From Escherichia phage 241: 64,000 bases of DNA. The notes below the pieces were generated by a model that had not been told where the DNA came from, did not search any database, and saw only the letters and a program-made list of their open reading frames with translations. The position numbers and the translations under genes are program-made. The stretch lies in the sequence record OR924452. One strand, given 5' to 3'. Positions 19,403 to 59,447 of the stretch are shown here, piece by piece (within the stretch, counting starts at the first letter, position 1; each line of letters starts with the position of its first letter).

Positions 19403-19594
19403 TCAAATCTTTTTATATGCTTTCAGGGTACAGATAATAGAGACGCCGCCAAATAGAACGAGCAATATGAATCGTTCCATCCTAAAATCAGGAAGGGAAA
19501 GCAGTCCCACAAGGCTGTCTAAAGCAATCATGAACGTTACTCCAGTCAGCATGCCCAACTTAAAGGAGTTGGAACCTCTTTTGCAACGTAGCAT
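19403..19594 (-). CDS. small membrane protein (63 aa)
   Basis: Two hydrophobic helices. Confidence 0.3.
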   Translation of the reverse strand: MLRCKRGSNSFKLGMLTGVTFMIALDSLVGLLSLPDFRMERFILLVLFGGVSIICTLKAYKKI

Positions 19595-31508: not shown

Positions 31509-32744
31509 TCATCGTTTCAACAAAGACATGAGGTTTACACTGGTCGACTTCGGATTGTCCTCTATCTTCCGGACGGGCATTTTCAGATTAGTGTAAACCT
31601 CAGATGGTTCCCAACGCGTACCCTGCTGCAGGTGCCATATATGTAGAGGAACACCCGTCTCAAAGAACACAGGCATCTTCCACTTCTGGACGCCAGGAAC
31701 GTGCCCTGCAGGAGCTTTTTCGCATAACAGGGTATCTGGTAGCCAGAGGGAACGGGCTTCCCATAATGCCTTACAGGAGTACTCAGGCCAGATGCGTTCC
31801 ATGTAGTCGATCTCATCCCAAGTACGCTCGGCATCCCACCCGATGTAACGAGTGTTTTTCAGACGGAAGAATTTCTTAAGCCAACAAGCGCCGGAAGTCT
31901 CAAAGTTCAAACGATTGATGAACGTGATGTGACCAAACTCGGCGACACAATCTTTGAATGCCTGTTCAAGATCAGCCTCAAGGATGTCGCATTCTTCATC
32001 GGTGATAGGACAGCCGTTGATCTTTTTCTTTCCGTGCTTGGTCACCCAGTCGTCACGGTTTGACAAGAATGCCGCGCCGTTGCGGTTGGACTCACTACCA
32101 TCACGGTCACGCAACATGAACCCAGGGACGTCGATCTGATACATGTTGCCGAATACCATGTTCAGGGCTTCCAGGAAGTTCCAGGCGCTCAGGCGACCGA
32201 AGTATTTCCACCCCATAGCCGTGTCCCATAGCTTAACGAATTGATCACTTTGCAGTTTAGTCTCCAACAACGGACGGAAAGCATCCATCTGAGTACGACC
32301 AGCCAGCCAATCAATGTAGGACTGAACACACGGGATCATCTTCGATTTGCGATAGCGGCAATCTGTATCGAATCGCATACGATCGAAGTTCAGGTTATAC
32401 CAATCACAGAATCGCTTGAACTCTTGTGGTGACTGAGGCGGTACAGGAAACTCACTATAAATCGTCCATGGGCCAATCCCATTATAACAACAGCCCCAAA
32501 GGAACGCCATCCAGATCTTGCGCTCGATCTTCTCAAGCTGCGTAATGCCTTCAGTGACTTCAATCGCATAATCCATCAGACGAACTTGTTGGTTGTGTTC
32601 TTCCGTATACGACAGCGCCTCCACCCATGCTTTGAGCAGATACATCCGATTCTCTGGCTTACGATAATCGATTGACAAATCAATTGGGTACTTCCATTCA
32701 GCCGGAGGCGTATAACCTGTCGGCATTTTAGATAGATGCGTCAT
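31509..32744 (-). CDS. hypothetical protein (411 aa); candidate DNA-base-modification enzyme
   Basis: Large Trp/Cys-rich ORF adjacent to P-loop kinase; no motif I can verify. Confidence 0.45.
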   Translation of the reverse strand: MTHLSKMPTGYTPPAEWKYPIDLSIDYRKPENRMYLLKAWVEALSYTEEHNQQVRLMDYAIEVTEGITQLEKIERKIWMAFLWGCCYNGIGPWTIYSEFPVPPQSPQEFKRFCDWYNLNFDRMRFDTDCRYRKSKMIPCVQSYIDWLAGRTQMDAFRPLLETKLQSDQFVKLWDTAMGWKYFGRLSAWNFLEALNMVFGNMYQIDVPGFMLRDRDGSESNRNGAAFLSNRDDWVTKHGKKKINGCPITDEECDILEADLEQAFKDCVAEFGHITFINRLNFETSGACWLKKFFRLKNTRYIGWDAERTWDEIDYMERIWPEYSCKALWEARSLWLPDTLLCEKAPAGHVPGVQKWKMPVFFETGVPLHIWHLQQGTRWEPSEVYTNLKMPVRKIEDNPKSTSVNLMSLLKR

Positions 32745-44895: not shown

Positions 44896-44990
44896 TAATG
44901 GGCGTTGGGAGAGTGCGTCGGGAATCGAACCCGAAACCGTCAGGACAATGAAAAGCTATTGCATTTCACCTTGCATATCCTCCGGCTTTC
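44896..44990 (-). ncRNA. tRNA-like element (T-arm UCGGG-UUCGAUU-CCCGA); no cloverleaf resolved
   Basis: Canonical T-arm on minus strand but no complementary 5' acceptor or 7-nt anticodon loop found by hand. Confidence 0.2.
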
Positions 44991-45071
44991 TTAACTTCCT
45001 TAACCCCAGATTGTTATGAAGTCGGCATGCACACCTTCTTCATCTTCAGGAAGTCACACTCATTGTTCTGG

Positions 45072-45144: not shown

Positions 45145-45210
45145 ATTTGGTGCCCGTTAGAGGAGTTGAACCTCAGCACTCTGGTGATCAACCCAGAGAG
45201 TCGCGCCTCA
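45145..45210 (-). ncRNA. tRNA-like 3' module (T-arm-like + acceptor-like + CCA) abutting tRNA-Ile
   Basis: Sequence ...GAGGUUCAACUCCUCUAACGGGCACCA ends 3 nt before tRNA-Ile 5' end; only distant 5' partner (GCCCGUC, ~145 nt upstream). Confidence 0.2.
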
Positions 45211-45498
45211 TCTATTTGATGGTCAATTTGGGTCTTGCAAAACCTTTACTGACCGTCTACAAACAGACTGCTTGACCGAGCGTAATTTGGACGGGCTTCA
45301 CACCCGATTGTGCATTTGATCTGCCGTAGCCCAACTCCCCGCGCCGAAGCGCCGATTGGTTAACTGGCACCAGTGCCTTCTGGTTCGATCTCCTGTAACT
45401 TTACAGGCTTTGCGCCCGACCATTTCTGGAAGTTGAGGCATCGTTTCCGATGTGGAGTCCCCTCATTTTACACAGCTGGCTGCAACGCTTACCGTGTT

Positions 45499-45582
45499 TG
45501 GTGTGAGTGGATGGATTCGAACCACCGCGCTGTTACGGGGAGATTTACAGTCTCCTGCATTCGACCGCTCTGCCACACTCAC
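45499..45582 (-). tRNA. tRNA-Tyr (anticodon GUA), type II with long variable arm, encoded CCA
   Basis: Hand-folded: acceptor GUGAGUG/CACUCAC, 3-bp D-stem, anticodon loop CUGUAAA, 12-nt variable region, T-arm GGUGG-UUCGAAU-CCAUC. Confidence 0.65.
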
Positions 45583-45589
45583 ATTTAGT

Positions 45590-45659
45590 CTACCGCCGCG
45601 TGCTGGGCCACGCTCGAGGACATCGGCCATCCTTCCTCAGCTAATCCACGCGGCGGTAG
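45590..45659. repeat. 13-bp perfect inverted repeat (CTACCGCCGCGTG / CACGCGGCGGTAG), 44-nt spacer
   Basis: Read directly; lies immediately 5' of tRNA-Tyr on the transcribed strand. Confidence 0.5.
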
Positions 45660-45826
45660 ATTTGGATCAGAGTGTACGGTGTAGCATTCCGCAGGGGTGC
45701 ACCTACTGTAGCCCTTCCACTCTGAAATTGGTGGGTGTTACTTCCGTCGGGTTCAGATTCCGTTCGGCTATTGGACTTCGCTTCAAGAGCTTGTCGTTCG
45801 CGTACTTCGTGCTTACTTGCTTTCGT

Positions 45827-46261
45827 TCACACCCATTGTCTGGTACGTATTTCTTGAATAACTTCGTCAAACAAGAAATCCTTTAACCATTTTACTCCCA
45901 CCACCTGATTATTCTTAGGCGGCGTTACCCTCAATCTAACATTCTTTGGATATTGTTTAGGATCCACCAAGACTTCTGTGCAAGTCTCAGGATGATAGCC
46001 ATAATACAAGTCAACAACATCCGAATGGTAAACCGATTTACATTTACCATTGTAATAATTCGTGGAACTGGCATCAAGAATAAAGGATGCCTTATCTTGT
46101 AAAAGGGTTTTGCATTGTACTTTGTACAAGCGCCCTTCTATATCCAAAACAAAATCATACGGCGCATTATCACCGAAAGGTTGAGAAACTGTTAGCCCCT
46201 GCTCAGTGCATTTGAACAAGAACCTAGTCTCACCTATCATACCCCGTTGTTTCGAATTCAA
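45827..46261 (-). CDS. hypothetical protein (144 aa) within tRNA island; possible nuclease-like
   Basis: ORF between tRNA-Tyr and tRNA-Met; PYDFVLD...E.RLYKVQCK loosely resembles a PD-(D/E)xK motif. Confidence 0.35.
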   Translation of the reverse strand: MNSKQRGMIGETRFLFKCTEQGLTVSQPFGDNAPYDFVLDIEGRLYKVQCKTLLQDKASFILDASSTNYYNGKCKSVYHSDVVDLYYGYHPETCTEVLVDPKQYPKNVRLRVTPPKNNQVVGVKWLKDFLFDEVIQEIRTRQWV

Positions 46262-46273
46262 ATTATTCCGCCT

Positions 46274-46498
46274 TTATCCGTGCTTGTTCGCTTCAATTGC
46301 CCTTAATTGAGCATCAGCGTCAGCTTTGGTGTCATGTGTCCCAAGAACCTTCGTCTTGGTGTGGTCAAGGACAACCCACTTGTCGCCTCGCTTTTCAACA
46401 AACTCAACAATCTCTTTGTTGTCAGTAGCGAGGCCATCCCACTCAGCAAGAAACTCACCGAACGTTTTCATCATACTCACCAATCGTTTATTGAACAA
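46274..46498 (-). CDS. hypothetical protein (74 aa)
   Basis: ORF within tRNA island. Confidence 0.35.
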   Translation of the reverse strand: MFNKRLVSMMKTFGEFLAEWDGLATDNKEIVEFVEKRGDKWVVLDHTKTKVLGTHDTKADADAQLRAIEANKHG

Positions 46499-46591: not shown

Positions 46592-46667
46592 TGGTGACCC
46601 TGGCTGGACTTGAACCAGCGACCAATCGATTATGAGTCGACTGCTCTAACCACTGAGCTACGGGGCC
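46592..46667 (-). tRNA. tRNA-Met (anticodon CAU), encoded CCA
   Basis: Hand-folded: acceptor GGCCCCG (one C-A mismatch), D-arm GCUC-AGUGGUUA-GAGC, anticodon loop CUCAUAA, T-arm GCUGG-UUCAAGU-CCAGC. Confidence 0.7.
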
Positions 46668-46781
46668 AAAATTGGCGGGGTCTGAGGCTTTTCACCTCAC
46701 CTGCTGGATTGGCCTCCAGCTGTTTGTTCTCTCTGGGGACTCGCTGTCCGGACAGCTGTCCCTTAAACTATCGCCCCTTAA

Positions 46782-46892
46782 TTCATATTGCTGTGGGTAG
46801 TACCAAAGCGGAGATTTGGAATCTCTCACCCTATAGCGACCTTTAAACCGTTTGATCAGTCCGATCCAAAGGACTACCCACAGCAATATGAA
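46782..46892. repeat. 20-bp inverted repeat (TTCATATTGCTGTGGGTAGT / ACTACCCACAGCAATATGAA), 71-nt spacer
   Basis: Read directly from sequence. Confidence 0.55.
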
Positions 46893-47091
46893 TTTGTTGT
46901 GTCCAATCAAGGACTGTCAACCTTTTATCCCGTTTGTGCATGATCAGTTCATGCAGGCCTCTTTGTGCGCCTCACAGCAACGCGCTTCTGTAGGTCATTG
47001 ACTTGCACCGTAGTCTCACCACAGGCGTTTATTTTTCCAGGGCTTTCCACTTACAAGTCTTAACCAGATCGGGATACGGGCTTGTAAGATC

Positions 47092-47169
47092 GGATTGGAC
47101 ACAACTTTGATGGCTCTAGGACTAAAGATCCCGCGTCACCCATAGACTTGGTTTATAAAATCTAGAGCC
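47092..47169. repeat. 18-bp perfect inverted repeat (CAACTTTGATGGCTCTAG / CTAGAGCCATCAAAGTTG), 42-nt spacer
   Basis: Read directly from sequence. Confidence 0.55.
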
Positions 47170-47560
47170 ATCAAAGTTGCAACCAATGTCGCAACTCGCA
47201 CTTCAGCGTCTTCGTCTCGCTTCAGCACTTGTCCTCTACGTTCGGACCAAACGAGGCTGGCCGACAGAAACATAACACCACTCATCACTAGAGCGAGGAT
47301 GTGGTTGATAGCCACGATGTTACGTCTCTGTCGTAGAGTGATCACACTTGTCAGGATGATCACTGTTTTGCGAACTTGAAAATACTGCGCCTGTCTCGGG
47401 TTTCCCCTTAGTTCGGCCTCTCATTGTTCGTCTGGTCAGGGAGCTACCCTTGATGACCAGCTTATTTTGAGATCTTCGCCAGCACCCACTAGTGTCTAGA
47501 ATATGTAGGTGTCGAGGTCTGCAAGGCATTGCCCTATTTCATACAACGCTCTCTCAAGTG

Positions 47561-47694
47561 CGCAAATCGAAGTTCTCTGGGCTTAACAGGTTCGACCCAA
47601 CATGTTGTATATCGCCTAACTTGCTCATGGGACGGACACATCTGTGTACAGACCTTGAGGGTTAAAAGATATACCCAGAGAACTTCGATTTGCG
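47561..47694. repeat. 21-bp perfect inverted repeat (CGCAAATCGAAGTTCTCTGGG / CCCAGAGAACTTCGATTTGCG), 92-nt spacer
   Basis: Read directly from sequence. Confidence 0.55.
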
Positions 47695-47840
47695 TTGTGG
47701 GGGCAAACCCCCACACGGCCACTTCTTTGACAGGGATTGCCAGCCCTGGGGATTCCACTGTTTAAGGCTTTATCCCATAACGCCTGAGGCGCGTTTTAAC
47801 TTATTGAGCTTGCATAACTGCAAACTGATGCGCTGTGAGA

Positions 47841-47973
47841 CACATCTTTGAGGGCACTCAGTGTACAACAGGCTCCGATATTTCATAGGGCATTACTGCC
47901 TCGGATTTAAGTTGCCTTTCTCCTGAAACTCCATGCAGTCTCGCGTCTGACGCGGAATGCCCTCAAAGATGTG
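47841..47973. repeat. 16-bp perfect inverted repeat (CACATCTTTGAGGGCA / TGCCCTCAAAGATGTG), 101-nt spacer
   Basis: Read directly from sequence. Confidence 0.55.
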
Positions 47974-47975
47974 GA

Positions 47976-48096
47976 GCCGTTTTAGGGAGTCGAACCCAAA
48001 TGCTTGGCCAGCGCTGACCTTACATCCCATCTGACTTAGGCAACCCACCTCTGCTACTCAGGAGCTTATCCCCTTTGGACAGTCAGATATAACGGC
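47976..48096 (-). ncRNA. tRNA-like module: T-arm-like (GGG-UUCGACU-CCC) + acceptor-like pairing GCCGUU/AACGGC enclosing ~120 nt, CCA-like 3' end
   Basis: T-loop and 3' ...AAACGGCUCCA read directly; 5' partner GCCGUUA found 127 nt upstream; no anticodon arm. Confidence 0.2.
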
Positions 48097-48100
48097 TTTG

Positions 48101-48190
48101 GGATTGGAGGAAGGACTCGAACCTTCTCATGTACGCTCCTGATTTCTCAGAAGTAGCCTGCTCCCATCGACCTATTAAGTACACGCTCCG
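48101..48190 (-). ncRNA. tRNA-like module with perfect T-arm (GAAGG-UUCGAGU-CCUUC), acceptor 3' strand and CCA; no cloverleaf
   Basis: 3' end ...CCUUC-CUCCAAU-C-CCA is tRNA-like; only a 1-mismatch 5' partner too close for a full tRNA. Confidence 0.25.
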
Positions 48191-48395
48191 CTCATTGTTC
48201 GGCGGGAGCTTATTAATCACACCCTCCCACCTATTGTTAGTGCGCCGAATTTTGTTATGAGGAATCGGAAGACCTCACTGACTTATAGGCTATTACGCCG
48301 CCATCAGAACTTCGGAATCATTAGCAGTTATTTGCTTGGTCAGTTTCTAAAAACCCGCAAAGTCACGCACAACGAAAACGAAAACCTGTTTGAGT

Positions 48396-48451
48396 CCTAA
48401 ACCTACCTGTCTTGGTCTCACATCGATATGAGTGGCCAGGACTCAAACAGC
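48396..48451. repeat. 12-bp perfect inverted repeat (CTGTTTGAGTCC / GGACTCAAACAG), 32-nt spacer
   Basis: Read directly from sequence. Confidence 0.45.
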
Positions 48452-48513
48452 TTGCCGTTCAGTGAGTTAACTATACTTTGTAACCCGTTATTGATAAAAC
48501 CTTTTATTTTGTT

Positions 48514-48607
48514 GGCGAGGGTGTGGAATCGAACCACACTTCTGAGCGCTACCCCGTGTCACCACCTCACCATCGATTTGCCGGAACTTACGCATCCGGC
48601 CTCGCCT
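48514..48607 (-). ncRNA. tRNA-like module: acceptor GGCGAGG/CCUCGCC + T-arm GUGUGG-UUCGAUU-CCACAC, CCGG-hairpin in place of D-arm, no anticodon arm
   Basis: All 5-bp/7-nt-loop combinations in the central 42 nt tested by hand; none pair. Confidence 0.25.
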
Positions 48608-49215
48608 GTTGGCGCTCCTAAAATCCGGGAAGACAGTAGGAACAATTATGTTACCAACAGGAACCTTGTTGCCCTTTGACGCAACATTATGAACCCTCTG
48701 TGGAAGACTCATAATGTTGTCGGCGTAATGGAGATTAGCGCCCCCGACCTCCCCTTATATGTTGGTGTCGACTTGCCAACAGGGTGCTCTCTGATTCTGA
48801 GCTAATCACGCTACAACAGGGAGTTTCGTTCTCCGACGGTCAAGTGCGTCCACTGACACCAGCGAGGTGGATATTGACTTATGGAGCCGGAGTCCTCGTC
48901 CTAGGACTGTGCTTGGCCTCAGCCTTTACACCGCTGGTCGCCCGACTCTTTACACCATAAAATTTACTATACTACAGCCCAGCTAATTTGAAAAGTCCTC
49001 TCCCCTTTGAGCTACACTGCCCACAGCAGTGCGGACGAACCTTCACTCAAAACCGGATGCGCCGAAGTGGGCAACTGTTTACCGGACTGATCGGGTAGAC
49101 CCAGGAGAGAGCAGGTAATCCCGATCAGGAGGATGAGGAGTAACATCATGTAAAACATAGTGTTCCCTCCCTTCCATGCAACTAACTTTACTGCATTTAT
49201 TTATTGAATAAAGCG

Positions 49216-52770: not shown

Positions 52771-53961
52771 ATGGCCGATTTCCTGAGTCAATATACAGGT
52801 CAGCAGATAGATCAGATATTGGGTTCTGTTGACGACAAAGTAAGTAAAAACGACGTCATTGATGATTTTGAAGTCAGTGACCCATTGTTTCCGCCTTCTG
52901 CTCGCCTGACTTATGAGTTGAAAAGGTCTGTGGATACGATTAATGACACTCTGACCAACAAAGTTATAAGAACGGATAGTGGTGAACAGACAATCAACGG
53001 TAAGAAGACATTTAATGCGCTGTTGGTTACTAACGGGGGAATCCAAGTCCCCACTGGGAAATCTGTTTCAATCGCGGACGAACCAACCAACTCAACAGAC
53101 GGTGTCAACCTGAGTATGTTGAGGAAACATGGTGTCAGTGAAGACACCGCGCCAGATGGGTCTGGTTTGGCTGGGGAATTATTGACTTCCGGATATTACA
53201 AATTCAAACTGGATTTTAACAGATTGGCTGCGTATACGGAATTAACTCTCCCAACATCAGTTCCCGTGCAAACAGATTCTGGAGTTCGCACATGGTCAAT
53301 GACTGCATTTTTTAATGCGTTATTTGCCGACAACCGTTTTAACGGTTATGTAACGACGACCACGTATGATGCCGACATGTTGAGTCTGGAGTCTCAGCTT
53401 AACAATATCAACACGACGTTGAACGGAAAAGTCAACACGTCAACTTACAACACAAAAATGGCTTCGTTGGATTTGAGTATATCCAACATTAACACATCTT
53501 TGAGCAACAAGGTTGAGGTCAGCACATATAATACGAAGATGACTTCCTTGGACGGCAGTATCAGTTCTCTCACGACTGGTAAGGTCGATGTATCAACGTA
53601 TAATGCCAAAATGACCACAATTGATAACAGTTTGGGGAACGCTGTTTATCGCACCAAAACAAACTTGTCATCACTGACGGTATCGGCTTCTGGAACAACA
53701 GCTCTGCCAGACTTTGATTTGGTGAAACTTTGCCAGATATTGGTAACAGCACAATGGGGTACAGGAGATGTCGTAGACACATATCGAGTCACCATAACTC
53801 GAGATGGGACGATTAAGTCTGAGCTGCTGATCCAGAAAAGTACGAGCGGAACTGTGACGTTTACGGGTTCTGTAGTTGGTGGGAAACTGAGGATTTCTGT
53901 TGTCAATGCCAATACGACAACACCTTGCTCAGTCGATTATTCTATTACAGCATCTTTCTAA
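52771..53961 (+). CDS. tail fiber-like protein with internal tandem peptide repeats
   Basis: Three to four ~24-aa repeats (V.[TV]STYN.KM.S.D.S.S...) in central region; operon position between baseplate and tail spikes. Confidence 0.5.
   Translation: MADFLSQYTGQQIDQILGSVDDKVSKNDVIDDFEVSDPLFPPSARLTYELKRSVDTINDTLTNKVIRTDSGEQTINGKKTFNALLVTNGGIQVPTGKSVSIADEPTNSTDGVNLSMLRKHGVSEDTAPDGSGLAGELLTSGYYKFKLDFNRLAAYTELTLPTSVPVQTDSGVRTWSMTAFFNALFADNRFNGYVTTTTYDADMLSLESQLNNINTTLNGKVNTSTYNTKMASLDLSISNINTSLSNKVEVSTYNTKMTSLDGSISSLTTGKVDVSTYNAKMTTIDNSLGNAVYRTKTNLSSLTVSASGTTALPDFDLVKLCQILVTAQWGTGDVVDTYRVTITRDGTIKSELLIQKSTSGTVTFTGSVVGGKLRISVVNANTTTPCSVDYSITASF
53380..53650 (+). repeat. in-frame tandem repeats (~70-80 nt units) within fiber gene
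   Basis: Protein-level repeats read from the translation. Confidence 0.4.
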
Positions 53962-54007: not shown

Positions 54008-57000
54008 ATGGCCAACAAACCAACACAGCCTCTTTTCCCTTTGGGTTTAGAAACTTCGGAGTCTTCTAACATAAAAGGCTTCAACAACTCCGGCACCATA
54101 GAGCATTCCCCTGGTGCAATATTGACGTTCCCTGAAGATACTGATGTTGCGGGTCTTCCATCTTCTGTGCGTTACAATCCTGTTAGTGATGAATTCGAAG
54201 GTTATTACGAAAATGGCGGGTGGCTGTCTTTGGGCGGCGGTGGAATACGCTGGGAAACGCTCCCATACGCTCCCTCTAGCAATTTGTTAGAAGGGCGCGG
54301 CTATCTCATTAATAACTCCACTGGGACTTCTACGGTGGTTCTTCCTTCCCCTACGCGCGTTGGTGACTCGGTTACAATTTGTGATGCCTATGGTAAATTC
54401 GCGACGTACCCATTGACTGTATCTCCAGCGGGAAATAACCTGTACGGCTCCACCGAAGATATGACGATATCCACCGATAACGTGTCGGCGACTTTCACTT
54501 GGTCTGGTGCTGAGCAGGGTTGGGTTGTTACATCTGGTGTTGGCCTAGGTCAAGGTCGTGTGTACAGTCGAGAGATTTTCACTCAAATTTTAGCATCTGA
54601 TACAAATGAAGTGACTCTCAACATCCCTCCGACAATTGTGGACGTGTACACTGATGGGAAACGCCTTACAGAATCCAAATATTCTTTAAATGGAAACGTA
54701 ATCACTTTCGACCCTTCTTTACCTGCTGGCACTGAATTGCAGGTAATAGAATATACTCCGATTCAGTTAGGTACTGGCGGCGGGGGTTCGGGCGCTTCTG
54801 CAATCACCTGGATTTACAATGGCGGATCCGCTATCGGCGGCGAAACCGAAATAACGCTAGACATCGTTGTAGATGATGTTCCGGCTATTGATATAAACGG
54901 GTCTCGTCAGTACAAAAATCTTGGATTCACGTTCGACCCATTGACGAGTAAAATCACTCTGACGCAAGAACTGGAACCAGAAGATGAAGTTGTTGTGGTT
55001 ATAAATGGGACACCAAACATTTATAACCAGATCGATCGTTCTTTACAGGAAGTTGCTCGCGCCTACAATTTTACAAATGCTCAAGTTATTTTGAGCAACG
55101 ATTATACTTCTGCGCTGGATAATAAAGTCGTTATTTATGATACAACATCCCAACGTTCTTGGGGGATTCCATCTGGAATTCCAGCAGGTTCTACAGTGGT
55201 TTCCGTCAATGGGGATCAACTGAAATACAAAAATGGATCAACTGAAACCACTGTTACATTGGTGAGTGTACCAGGTAGTGCAGAGAAGTTGAAGAACGAT
55301 CTGGCGTCGAACTCTGGCGCGGGCATGTTGAAAACTTCTAGAGGTGATACCGTAGAAGAAGAATTGACTTTTATTAATCAGAATATGGTCGTTCAAATTT
55401 CAGATTTCGCGAGCCTTAGAACTTTAGTGCCAGCCACAGCGGGCATCCGAGTCAAATTGAAAGGTTATTATTCTGGTTCTGAAATTGGTGGCGGAGAATT
55501 CATTTCCGTCGCTGGTGATGCTGTTGATGATGCTGGGATGATTGCTCGAGTGTCAAGCAGCTTCTATTGGAAGAGAATTATCGACAAACATATTACTCCT
55601 GGTATGTATGGCATCAAAGGGAATCTTCCAGAAGATCCGGCAGTGAAACTGAACGCTATGTTTACGGCTGCGGCTGCGGCTAACGCTTATGTCTTACTGA
55701 ACGATGTCGATACTCTGGTCTGTAAAAGCCCTGTCGTGATCCCAGCACATTCATTAGTGTACGGCAACAAGCGGACCATATTGAAACGTGATGCATCGTT
55801 GTCATATGCTAATGATTTCTTGACAATTATGAATGATTCATATGTCAAGGGGATCTATGTTGATGGTAGCCGTTTAGATTCTCAGACTCCGCTAGAAGCA
55901 GTTTTGGTGCGCATCGCTGGGAATGTGACTATCCATAAGAGCGAGATCCGAAACAATGCTGGCTATGGCGTTGTTGGTAACGCAGTCCCTGGCATTCGTA
56001 TCACCAAGAACATTTTTTCCAACTTCGCCAAAGGTTGTGTGGCTATGTTTGGCGACGGAACGGCGACGAGTGATGATCTGCAAATTAATGATAACAGATT
56101 CTTTAACCTGGGCGCGGGAACCATTTATGTTGGCGGTTACTCAAACTTCCTTGTCGACAAAAACGTCGGAAGAGGCACTTACGTGGGTTCTCCAGGAAAC
56201 CGTCTGTATGTTGTGACCAATACCAACGGGACTATCACCCAAAGCGCTGGGCCAGATTTTGGGGCGCTGAAAACGGGTATGTTCTTTGTATTGCCTGGTG
56301 GTTCTGAACATATGATAACGGCAGTCAACAGCCTTACAAGTGTGACAGTAACCCCAGCGCCTCCGTCGAATGCAACGGTTCGTGCAATTGCTGGGACAGG
56401 GGATCTTCTGGGCATCCAATCATGCTCCTACGGCACCATCAGCCGTAACAACCTGACCGATTGTGTGACTTACGGAACTGGTGGAGGCACGATGGAGGGG
56501 AGCACTCTGGGGTGCAATTATGTCACTTGGGAAGACAACTTCATCCGCAACACAGGTAAGAACGGAATCAACGTCGGGCAATCAGGCGCTGGGGTCGCCA
56601 CGTGTTCAATCCTGAGGAACACTCTGATACAGGTTGGTAACGGCGGTCAGGGCGTCGGCCCAGCGTATCTTCTGCCTTGGTTCGATACGGTAGGTATTGC
56701 TCTGTATCAGGGAAATCCAGGTTATATGGCGAATATGGACGTCAGTGATAACAACGTCTCTACATGGTCTGGCGATCTGAATGACGGCGCTGCTTGGTTT
56801 GGTATGAGCGGTTGTACGGAAGCCACTGTGACTTGTACAGGCAACAAATCTTCTGGTTATTCCGACGGCTATGTTCGTGGAGATATATTAGAAGTCACGT
56901 TGACAGGTTATGGTACAGGGGCGGCTGCGACTTCATTCGTTAGTGATGGTGAGTCTATACAGATAACCGTTCAAACAGGTACTTCACCAACAGCTTCTCC

Positions 57001-59404: not shown

Positions 59405-59447
59405 CTAAATACCCCATATTGGCAAATCCTTTATGGGGTATTTTCAA
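59405..59447 (+). promoter_or_regulatory. conserved late leader element: CTAAATA + hairpin ATACCCCATA...TATGGGGTAT, then ATG
   Basis: Near-identical to the 57192 copy. Confidence 0.5.

Follow-up and report, generated by a model that had tools for sequence, protein, structure and literature searches.

Transfer-messenger RNA (tmRNA, SsrA) is regarded as nearly universal in bacteria, where its gene comes in standard, intron-containing and permuted layouts; the molecule needs an alanine-accepting tRNA-like domain that encloses the tag template, with G3·U70 as the alanine identity. Some phages depend on the SsrA of their host, and most known phage copies of tmRNA belong to mycobacteriophages or to a small number of large phages. 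A second problem of phage RNA biology, the puzzle of RNAC and RNAD of phage T4, has to our knowledge gone unsolved for 50 years. Here we analyse a stretch of 64,000 nucleotides (nt) of Escherichia phage 241 (sequence record OR924452; the whole stretch is called the window below, and all positions refer to it) and describe an island at 46668-49010, next to tRNA genes, that holds long hairpins, tRNA-shaped genes and a tmRNA-like core with a short, conserved tag frame.

RNAC and RNAD are still listed as RNAs of unknown role (PMC3014915, PMC9697503). Phage tmRNAs have been described from mycobacteriophages and Bacillus phage G, 79 phage sequences being held in a 2025 tmRNA database (PMC11915505, PMC4131195), and mycobacteriophage DS6A encodes little more than the tRNA-like domain of tmRNA, a similar molecule being an inhibitor of tmRNA (PMC4131195, PMC11915505). 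In the literature we found no mention of tmRNA for Ackermannviridae, T1-like phages, N4-like phages or lambdoid prophages, and none of the tag peptides given below. A Kuttervirus genome report lists 'tmRNAs 0' (PMC10112204), and a 2024 review of the Ackermannviridae mentions neither tRNAs nor non-coding RNA. The core described here is unannotated and no earlier report of it was found.

Results

The tmRNA-like core and its tag frame

The core is a minus-strand element of about 190 nt (48194..48387), recognised by its occurrence in unrelated phages, its structure and its sub-threshold matches to tmRNA. In the order of the minus strand it consists of a GGUUUUCG box (48373-48387), a pre-tag hairpin (48331-48361), the tag reading frame (48290..48325), a stop-codon helix (48278-48307), a hairpin Hb (48258-48277) whose loop CCGA pseudoknots with UCGG in 48241-48249, and a terminal hairpin Hc (48201-48231) with the conserved loop GGUGUGAUUAAUAAG. 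The tag frame reads GCU AAU GAU UCC GAA GUU CUG AUG GCG GCG UAA UAG, that is ANDSEVLMAA followed by two stops, and is directly preceded by UAACU. As in tmRNA, the frame begins with an alanine (GCN) resume codon, without a start codon or a Shine-Dalgarno sequence, and is conserved as a coding frame. Ten codons followed by UAA were found in 96 of 99 unique homologues, the other three having no recognisable frame, and the peptides fit AN[DE]x-x-[FYVM]-L-[AM]-[AV]-A, further examples being ANDDVVLMAA, ANDEQFLAVA and ANEEMYLAVA, together with ANDNTFLAVA in other Kuttervirus. The E. coli tmRNA tag, ANDENYALAA, is of the same kind, and the phage tags resemble it. Codons of the frame change synonymously (GCA/GCU, AAC/AAU, CUG/UUG, GCC/GCU/GCG). 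A fixed length, synonymous changes and UAA are the pattern predicted for a decoded frame, and the alignments indicate that the tag frame is under selection at the codon level.

The core also has a conserved secondary structure. Five elements were specified on an alignment of 30 sequences, with 500 shuffles, and a sliding of the partner strand by 1-3 columns, as controls. Of all cells 90.2% were paired and 15 pairs had changed on both sides; no shuffle (0/500) reached the observed values, and slid partners paired at 43-50%. The pre-tag hairpin, which ends 6-7 nt before the resume codon, was 84% paired with some compensatory change, and no second strand that would make it a PK1-like pseudoknot was found. 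The helix around the stop codons, CUGA/UCAG in one allele and CUGG/CCAG in the other, was 96.5% paired and matches what is expected of helix 5 of tmRNA. The downstream pseudoknot joins the Hb loop to an invariant UUCGGCGCA and occurs as CCGA/UCGG, CCAG/CUGG or CCAA/UUGG, with three compensated pairs; two divergent phages have GUCG/CGAC instead, one position over. The Hc loop is 15 nt long and conserved, GGUGUGAUUAAUAAN. A covariance model built from the same alignment finds a single copy in the window, at 48194-48381.

The relationship to tmRNA is visible only in sub-threshold alignments and in the comparison with unrelated phages. The tag region of every copy tested aligns below threshold to the Rfam models tmRNA_permuted or beta_tmRNA: the tmRNA_permuted score in the window is 21.5 bits (threshold 47), 18 further loci gave 16-27 bits (gathering thresholds 47-84), and the E. 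coli copy, scanned permissively, lines up with the tag region in permuted and in beta-proteobacterial tmRNA. Whether run at gathering thresholds or at E = 10, Rfam returned the three canonical tRNAs and microRNA-like matches that simply reflect long hairpins, and the scan, which an earlier note on this DNA had proposed, thereby yielded nothing above threshold in the island.

Distribution of the core

Near matches to 46700-49200 were found in 281 phage records and distant matches in 387 (BLAST against phage genomes). The records are nearly all Ackermannviridae, namely Kuttervirus (CBA120, Vi01), Agtrevirus, Taipeivirus, Limestonevirus and Miltonvirus, and show the region either as a blank or as short 'hypothetical protein' open reading frames (ORFs). 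A piece of 140 nt (~48239-48379) also matches, by distant BLAST, phages outside the Ackermannviridae, including T1-like siphoviruses and the N4-like Gamaleyavirus; in those phages the core falls where the records annotate nothing, in some cases next to tRNA genes. From IMG/VR, two pattern scans retrieved 56 and 112 loci. Among bacterial genomes, 282 of 5,426 complete E. coli genomes (~5%) have the core, always on the chromosome, and its pattern occurs in only 2 of 100,044 species-representative genomes, which marks it as a phage or prophage element and not the host ssrA. One locus was inspected: in E. coli 55989 the core belongs to a lambdoid prophage, with the gene for antiterminator Q on one side and the holin gene on the other. 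This copy (locus L061, 3574-4365, minus strand) stands in the late-operon leader, after a promoter and a terminator resembling pR'-tR', and would therefore be expressed only under Q antitermination. These comparisons point to a tmRNA-derived unit spread among Ackermannviridae, T1-like phages, N4-like phages and lambdoid prophages.

Inverted repeats and predicted hairpin RNAs of the minus strand

Six perfect inverted repeats of at least 11 nt lie in 46668-49010, against a mean of 0.066 in 500 dinucleotide-preserving shuffles of that segment; four of them have at least 14 nt (shuffle mean 0.002). Their spacers measure 16-101 nt, and in the whole 64-kb window 6 of the 10 perfect repeats of at least 12 nt fall within 45.5-48.5 kb. 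In the corresponding island of other genera there are separate sets of repeats, 17-29 nt long. The earlier note had listed six perfect inverted repeats, each read as a hairpin. A repeat finder and an exact scan recovered them all, four at the positions given and the second and fifth displaced by ~10 nt; the hairpins hold, and the series was incomplete, in that three aberrant tRNA-like genes and the tmRNA-like tag element at 48194-48387 had been missed.

For an analysis of covariation, each hairpin was aligned with homologues from 4-13 distinct relatives, and cells were counted only at positions that are perfectly Watson-Crick paired in phage 241. At these stem positions the relatives have 54 compensated Watson-Crick cells, 43 G·U and 3 A·C, the G·U wobbles being seen only on the tRNA-sense (minus) strand. 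DNA pairing or neutral drift predicts G·U and A·C in equal numbers, and the ratio of 43 to 3 therefore argues for selection on RNA of the tRNA sense. By the evidence of covariation the repeat arms are RNA helices of the minus strand, and the proposal that the repeats are paired hairpin arms conserved in relatives is borne out.

All of the individual hairpins lie on the minus strand. IRa (46780..46894; arms 46780-46801/46873-46894) has a perfect stem of 22 bp and a 71-nt loop, and is a cassette in a variable slot; one stem change in relatives is GCUG/CAGC to GUCG/CGAC. IRb (47094..47187) has a 26-bp stem and a 42-nt loop (47102-47119/47162-47179, 18 nt perfect, 26 nt at 88%); it shows compensatory changes from A-U to G-C, and its stem base is conserved while the apical part varies from 45 to 94 nt across genera. 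The end of its 3' arm, GUUGUGUCCAAUC (47093-47105), is also perfectly complementary over 13 nt to 46896-46908. This alternative pairing would enclose a segment of 184 nt (46909-47092) between IRb and IRa, and is reminiscent of lambdoid prophages, where the core is flanked by identical stems arranged in chains (CACAAC.../...GUUGUGG). IRc (47561..47694; arms 47561-47581/47674-47694) has a perfect stem of 21 bp and a 92-nt loop; many of its stem positions differ in a Taipeivirus-type homologue, all of them compensated, and in relatives UUCUCUGGG/CCCAGAGAA has become UGCCCUGAC/GUCAGGGCA. IRd (47841..47973) combines a 24-bp stem (47841-47856/47958-47973, 16 nt perfect, 24 nt at 88%) with a structured loop of 85 nt. 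IRe (48377..48459), the 5' hairpin of the tmRNA-like unit, has a 22-bp stem (48386-48398/48438-48450, 13 nt perfect, 22 nt at 86%) and a 39-nt loop; its stem, of which there are two alleles, shows both compensatory and G·U changes (31 loci, 13 unique sequences). IRf (48682..48719; arms 48682-48692/48709-48719) has 11 perfect base pairs, extending further, and a 16-nt loop; it was found in 30 related loci with its stem pairing retained. A module of the same kind, IRg (45589..45660, 14-bp stem, 44-nt loop), lies outside the island and stops 6 nt short of tRNA-Tyr; in 12 distinct relatives its loop is almost invariant and its stem changes at 8 pairs, all compensated.

Several stems begin with CACAWC and end with GWUGUG, as do stems of the lambdoid and T1 versions (CACAACAGGUAAGAGCA...UGCUCUUWCCGUUGUGG), an enrichment at the stem base of only about threefold. 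We also considered the arms as guides or antisense RNAs to other phage genes and rejected the idea: matches of 12-13 nt to other parts of the window are about as frequent as chance predicts. Exact matches of this length to the arms of IRa, IRc and IRd are found at 19461-19472, 32340-32351 and 53492-53504; the count is that of chance for the island as a whole and marginal for the arms alone (3 observed, ~0.6 expected). Four further perfect inverted repeats of 12-14 nt with short loops lie outside the island (843-902, 31529-31602, 54996-55029 and 59407-59443) and may be terminators.

tRNA-shaped modules

The minus strand was scanned for a T-arm and then for an acceptor strand, and the candidates were folded and aligned. 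This revealed three tRNA-shaped genes inside the island that ARAGORN and Rfam had missed, each lying on the tRNA strand and having a T-arm that fits GGUUCGAnUCC. Module A (48513..48606) has an acceptor stem of 7 bp (GGCGAGG/CCUCGCC), the T-arm GUGUGGUUCGAUUCCACAC and discriminator A, without an encoded CCA. It was aligned across 16 loci, its T-arm matches tmRNA models locally, and the record of one relative labels it tRNA-Ala; the copy in phage 241 has an 8-nt deletion compared with relatives and may be decaying. Module B (48099..48168) is a mini tRNA-like element without a D-arm, with the T-arm GAAGGUUCGAGUCCUUC, an encoded CCA, an acceptor (G)AUGGGAG/CUCCAAU(C) bearing a G·A mismatch at 3:70, and a GAAA-capped hairpin in place of the anticodon arm; it gives a weak tRNA-Sec-like alignment of 17 bits, and is an optional cassette, missing or replaced by other modules in relatives. 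Module C (47972..48096; 125 nt) has two long arms, the acceptor GCCGUU/AACGGC, the T-arm GGGUUCGACUCCC, discriminator U and an encoded CCA that abuts the first base of IRd; its acceptor stem and both arms show compensatory changes (23 loci, 14 unique sequences).

Beyond tRNA-Tyr there are two more minus-strand genes of this shape, likewise missed by ARAGORN and Rfam: D (45148-45268), which ends in AACGGGC-A-CCA, and E (44907-45061; 155 nt, T-arm UCGGGUUCGAUUCCCGA), whose acceptor stem and arms show compensatory changes. A 49-nt hairpin segment at 47044-47092 resembles a remnant of the D-arm and anticodon arm of a tRNA, and is 94% identical to the spacer between tRNA-Thr and tRNA-Asn in Klebsiella phage KP13-26 (Stephanstirmvirinae; locus L153, 1501-1549).

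A candidate tRNA-like partner of the core

A self-closed tRNA-like module recurs directly on the 3' side of the core. Ackermannviridae have B, C or both in this place; the remaining phage groups have a hairpin and, after it, a domain of 84-159 nt, closed by GUUGUGGUG/CACCACAAC, with D-like and T-like hairpins. The two loops of this domain change together, AAUGGC going with UUCGAUU, a classical tRNA elbow, and AGGCUGA with AGAUCAGCA, a pair capable of a 5-bp kissing interaction (GCUGA/UCAGC); this joint change argues for an L-shaped fold. With strict patterns, C or a stem-closed tRNA-like domain follows the core in 46 of 101 unique contexts. At the position of the alanine determinant the GUUGUGGUG...CACCACAAC domain has U3-A70, without G3·U70. 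The tRNA-like modules that neighbour the core are all self-closed, and the Rfam permuted model puts IRe, with its cap formed by the 39-nt loop, where the helix enclosing a tRNA-like domain would be.

Three ways of assembling a complete tmRNA were examined and rejected. In a standard topology, the 5' end of the unit pairs with the sequence after Hc at 10 of 13 positions here, and the two sides do not covary in relatives. A permuted topology would take its acceptor piece from A, which already pairs with a 5' strand of its own and has no complementary 5' acceptor strand after it. Pairing of the template in trans with A, B, C or the lambdoid tRNA-like domain gives RNAduplex energies no better than those of shuffles.

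Slots, promoter-like sites and probable operon-like organisation

When the island was tiled against all fetched loci, each module was present in 5-30 of them. The slot of IRa, flanked by ...CACACAAYAA and GGGGCGAUAG, contains IRa, an unrelated 100-nt hairpin, a 99-nt mini tRNA-like element ending in ACCA, or just 16-18 nt; that between the core and C contains nothing, B, a B variant, a hairpin of 154-156 nt, or 190 nt. Hairpins and mini tRNA-like elements are interchangeable occupants of fixed slots. In the core-to-C slot of Shigella phage MK-13 the terminal hairpin segment of the core is tandemly duplicated (GGGGGGUGUGAUUAAUAAGCUCCCGCCGACUAAAAUCUGUUUGG twice in part).

Modules of the island are 0-6 nt apart, a spacing typical of polycistronic tRNA precursors. 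A consensus scan found two promoter-like sequences on the minus strand, the putative P1 (48966..48994; TTTTCA-17-TATAGT, containing AGTATAGTAAA) and P2 (48470..48497; TTATCA-16-TATAGT), the latter just upstream of the tmRNA-like unit. The two share AGTATAGTWAA, of which the window has only these two exact copies, both in the island and on the minus strand. The P2 sequence AAAGUAUAGUUAAC is conserved in all aligned Ackermannviridae, and T1-like phage C1 has TTGACA-17-TAGATT at the equivalent place. We consider it probable that 46668-49010 is an operon-like, minus-strand cluster of stable-RNA genes that is continuous with the canonical tRNA genes.

Coding content and neighbouring genes

ARAGORN and Rfam identify three canonical tRNA genes (Ile, Tyr and Met), all on the minus strand. 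tRNA-Met(CAU) (46592..46667) borders the island on its 3' side, and tRNA-Tyr lies at 45499-45582. By the direction of transcription the island is thus upstream of tRNA-Met, and not downstream of the tRNAs as the earlier note had it. The same note saw no convincing ORF for ~2.5 kb, which is right for 46668-49010: comparison across relatives found no conserved ORF in this interval, the longest ones (58-83 amino acids) are interrupted by stops or +/-1 frameshift indels in close relatives, and their variable sites are even across codon positions, without third-position bias. A control gene at 46274-46498 has 19, 13 and 47 variable sites by codon position, the expected third-position excess. PHROG families match some of the island ORFs, which probably reflects repeated mis-annotation. 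Beyond 49010 the statement fails, and the non-coding stretch is of ~2.3 kb, since a hydrophobic ORF of 48 amino acids (49012-49158, minus strand; phrog_8415), directly after a gene of 189 amino acids, is always intact (21/21 relatives). This ORF may be a real small membrane protein.

Between tRNA-Tyr and tRNA-Met lies a minus-strand ORF of 144 amino acids (45827-46261; phrog_5018, function unknown) to which none of the other Ackermannviridae loci fetched has an equivalent. A mobile insertion is the probable explanation, because genes for HNH homing endonucleases are frequent in the tRNA/island region of relatives.

Discussion

The comparisons make it very likely that 46668-49010 is a functional RNA-gene island that includes a tmRNA-derived element. 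On our best reading of the sequences its modules are of three kinds: long-stem hairpin RNAs, aberrant tRNA-shaped RNAs and the tmRNA-derived unit. We propose that P1 and P2 would drive minus-strand precursors, that host RNase III would cut these precursors within helices of at least 20 bp, and that RNase P together with 3' trimming would act at the tRNA-like modules; the products would be hairpin RNAs with protected ends, tRNA-like RNAs and a template RNA. E. coli RNase III needs about two turns (at least 20 bp) of near-perfect helix, and the stems of IRa (22 bp), IRb (26 bp), IRc (21 bp), IRd (24 bp) and IRe (22 bp) all have this length; by analogy with its known substrates, we regard cleavage of the long stems by RNase III as an evenly balanced possibility. 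tRNA-like modules, for their part, are natural sites of RNase P cleavage and 3' trimming. In infected cells the tag frame would be decoded by trans-translation, stalled nascent chains gaining a phage-specified degron, and the acceptor function would come from the adjacent tRNA-like module, B or C in phage 241 and the GUUGUGGUG...CACCACAAC domain in other phages, in a template/acceptor topology unlike that of any known tmRNA. The template is most likely decoded because of its codon-level conservation; that the tag is really added to proteins we hold as tentative. It is tempting to go further and to speculate that at least four unrelated groups of enterobacterial phages share a class of tmRNA-derived RNA in which the tag template is uncoupled from the acceptor-like tRNA domain that follows it, that this class lets a phage tag stalled polypeptides or take over ribosome rescue, and that the slot-swapped cassettes of the Ackermannviridae form a fast-evolving RNA arsenal comparable to anti-defence islands; in this full form, the proposal is rather unlikely.

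Several observations weigh against our best reading. No tRNA-like domain enclosing the template was found, pairings between the flanks failing to survive comparison across relatives, and none of the modules in the island has G3·U70 (C3-G70 in A and C, G3·A70 in B). If RNase P cut at B or C, the tag template would come away from them, and no specific complementarity to join the pieces was found; about 40% of contexts have no tRNA-like partner recognisable by simple patterns. Neither ARAGORN nor Rfam at its gathering thresholds calls a tmRNA, ARAGORN giving 0 in 18 island sequences. The deletion in A and the parts that resemble tRNA remnants suggest that some modules may be decaying. Limestonevirus relatives are without the core and most of the island (the core covariance model gave no match in one Limestonevirus), which makes the core dispensable for the family. 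In the literature we found no transcript data for Ackermannviridae.

The nearest alternative is that the tmRNA-like RNA is a mimic and not a template, one that binds and diverts S1, RNase R and possibly SmpB-ribosome complexes and thereby inhibits or retunes the trans-translation of the host. The missing canonical tRNA-like domain and the missing G3·U70 would suit such a molecule, for which DS6A is a precedent in the opposite sense. However, synonymous codon changes, a fixed length of ten codons and an invariant UAA are predicted by decoding and needless for a protein-binding decoy, and a mimic leaves the frequent downstream tRNA-like partner unexplained; we consider it unlikely. The island might also be evolutionary debris, a decaying tRNA cluster with a captured ssrA fragment, in which the palindromes are by-products of recombination or homing endonucleases and have no RNA function. 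While the mosaic presence and absence of modules, the 8-nt deletion in A, the tRNA-remnant-like match of 49 nt to an inter-tRNA spacer of an unrelated phage, the homing endonuclease genes in the region of relatives and the near absence of the island from Limestonevirus all speak for debris, this view is improbable given the compensatory and strand-specific G·U substitutions in seven helices and in C and E, the covarying pseudoknot and a tag conserved at the codon level across four phage groups, and the retention of the island in several hundred phage genomes.

The palindromes could instead work as DNA, as cruciform or hairpin sites for replication, packaging or recombination, or as ends of mobile elements similar to miniature inverted-repeat transposable elements (MITEs) or to integron attC sites. 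This would account for arms that are perfectly complementary in this genome, for the alternative cassettes in the same slots beside a conserved junction (CACACAAYAA) and for the CACAWC...GWUGUG base that several stems share. It has only a slim chance of being right, as DNA pairing does not favour G·U over A·C on one strand, each arm is unique in the window apart from 12-13-mers at chance level, no recombinase gene lies nearby, and the motif is enriched only about threefold; cassette exchange at the DNA level may nevertheless go on alongside an RNA function. Finally, the region could encode several very small proteins, as the 'hypothetical protein' ORFs of many GenBank records and the PHROG families of some of them would have it. 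With frameshifts and stops in close relatives, no third-position bias and only the ORF at 49012-49158 consistently intact, this is hardly credible.

If the island is indeed a set of RNA genes with a tmRNA-derived unit, a tag-template RNA without an enclosing tRNA-like domain would be a new tmRNA layout, and one common to well-studied groups of coliphages (T1-like, N4-like and Vi1-like) and to lambdoid prophages of pathogenic E. coli. The question would then arise whether phages re-address ribosome rescue and protein tagging during infection. Standard pipelines give 'tmRNA: 0' for these phages, and several hundred phage genomes, including candidates for therapy and biocontrol (Kuttervirus), present these 2-3 kb as 'hypothetical proteins' or as a blank. 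The puzzle of T4 RNAC and RNAD, for its part, gains a much larger comparative data set.

How does the locus compare with described systems? GOLLD and ROOL are structured non-coding RNAs of phage and prophage genomes, often found beside tRNA genes; identity of the island RNAs with these, or with Y RNA/YrlA, was rejected, no Rfam match being obtained even at E = 10. Bacterial Y RNAs combine a long closing stem with a tRNA-like module (PMC4201824). They differ from the RNAs described here, whose stems vary freely and which have no Ro-binding motif. A closer parallel to the hairpins is offered by the RNase III processing stems of the rRNA operon and of T7 early RNA, in which uninterrupted helices of at least 20 bp likewise bracket RNA in a polycistronic precursor; the loops here, however, hold no known RNA, and cleavage is predicted from the length of the stems.

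With tmRNA the core shares an alanine resume codon without a start codon, a tag of ten codons of the type AND...LxxA, UAAAU ahead of the resume codon, a structured element close by on the upstream side, a stop codon within a helix and a pseudoknot downstream. It differs in its size of ~190 nt, in having one pseudoknot, in forming no tRNA-like domain from its ends or from two pieces, and in the separate, self-closed tRNA-like module that stands 3' of the tag template. Judged by these features, the core fails as a canonical tmRNA yet appears to share the whole template half of one. The 'tRNA-like domain only' (TLD-only) tmRNA of DS6A is, as here, a partial tmRNA in a phage, and its reduced layout of acceptor, one hairpin, T-arm and CCA is like that of B, a likeness of layout; DS6A keeps the acceptor half, whereas the widely shared and conserved part here is the template half.

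The comparison with T4 stable RNAs, made in the earlier note, is apt. RNAC (species 1) and RNAD (species 2) are, like the modules of the island, small non-tRNA RNAs within a tRNA cluster, on the tRNA strand and packed a few nt apart. We fetched and folded the sequence of T4 rnaC: its 139 nt fold into a tRNA-like shape with a canonical T-arm (CCGGGUUCGAAUCCCGG) and long extra arms, much like the elements described here and in particular C and E, the likeness being one of fold layout. No T4-like phage was listed among the BLAST matches of the island against phage records, and no dedicated model was used to compare C with rnaC. Homology of the core to RNAD was suggested by a shared 8-mer, CGGCGCAC, and rejected, as the core covariance model has no match in the T4 tRNA region. 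The best reading of the tRNA-shaped A, B and C is that they are analogues of RNAC. T4 has two such RNAs, while the island counts three or more tRNA-like RNAs, five or more long hairpins and one tag template, and by this analogy the array of hairpin and tRNA-like cassettes would be a much-expanded counterpart of the T4 RNAC/RNAD locus.

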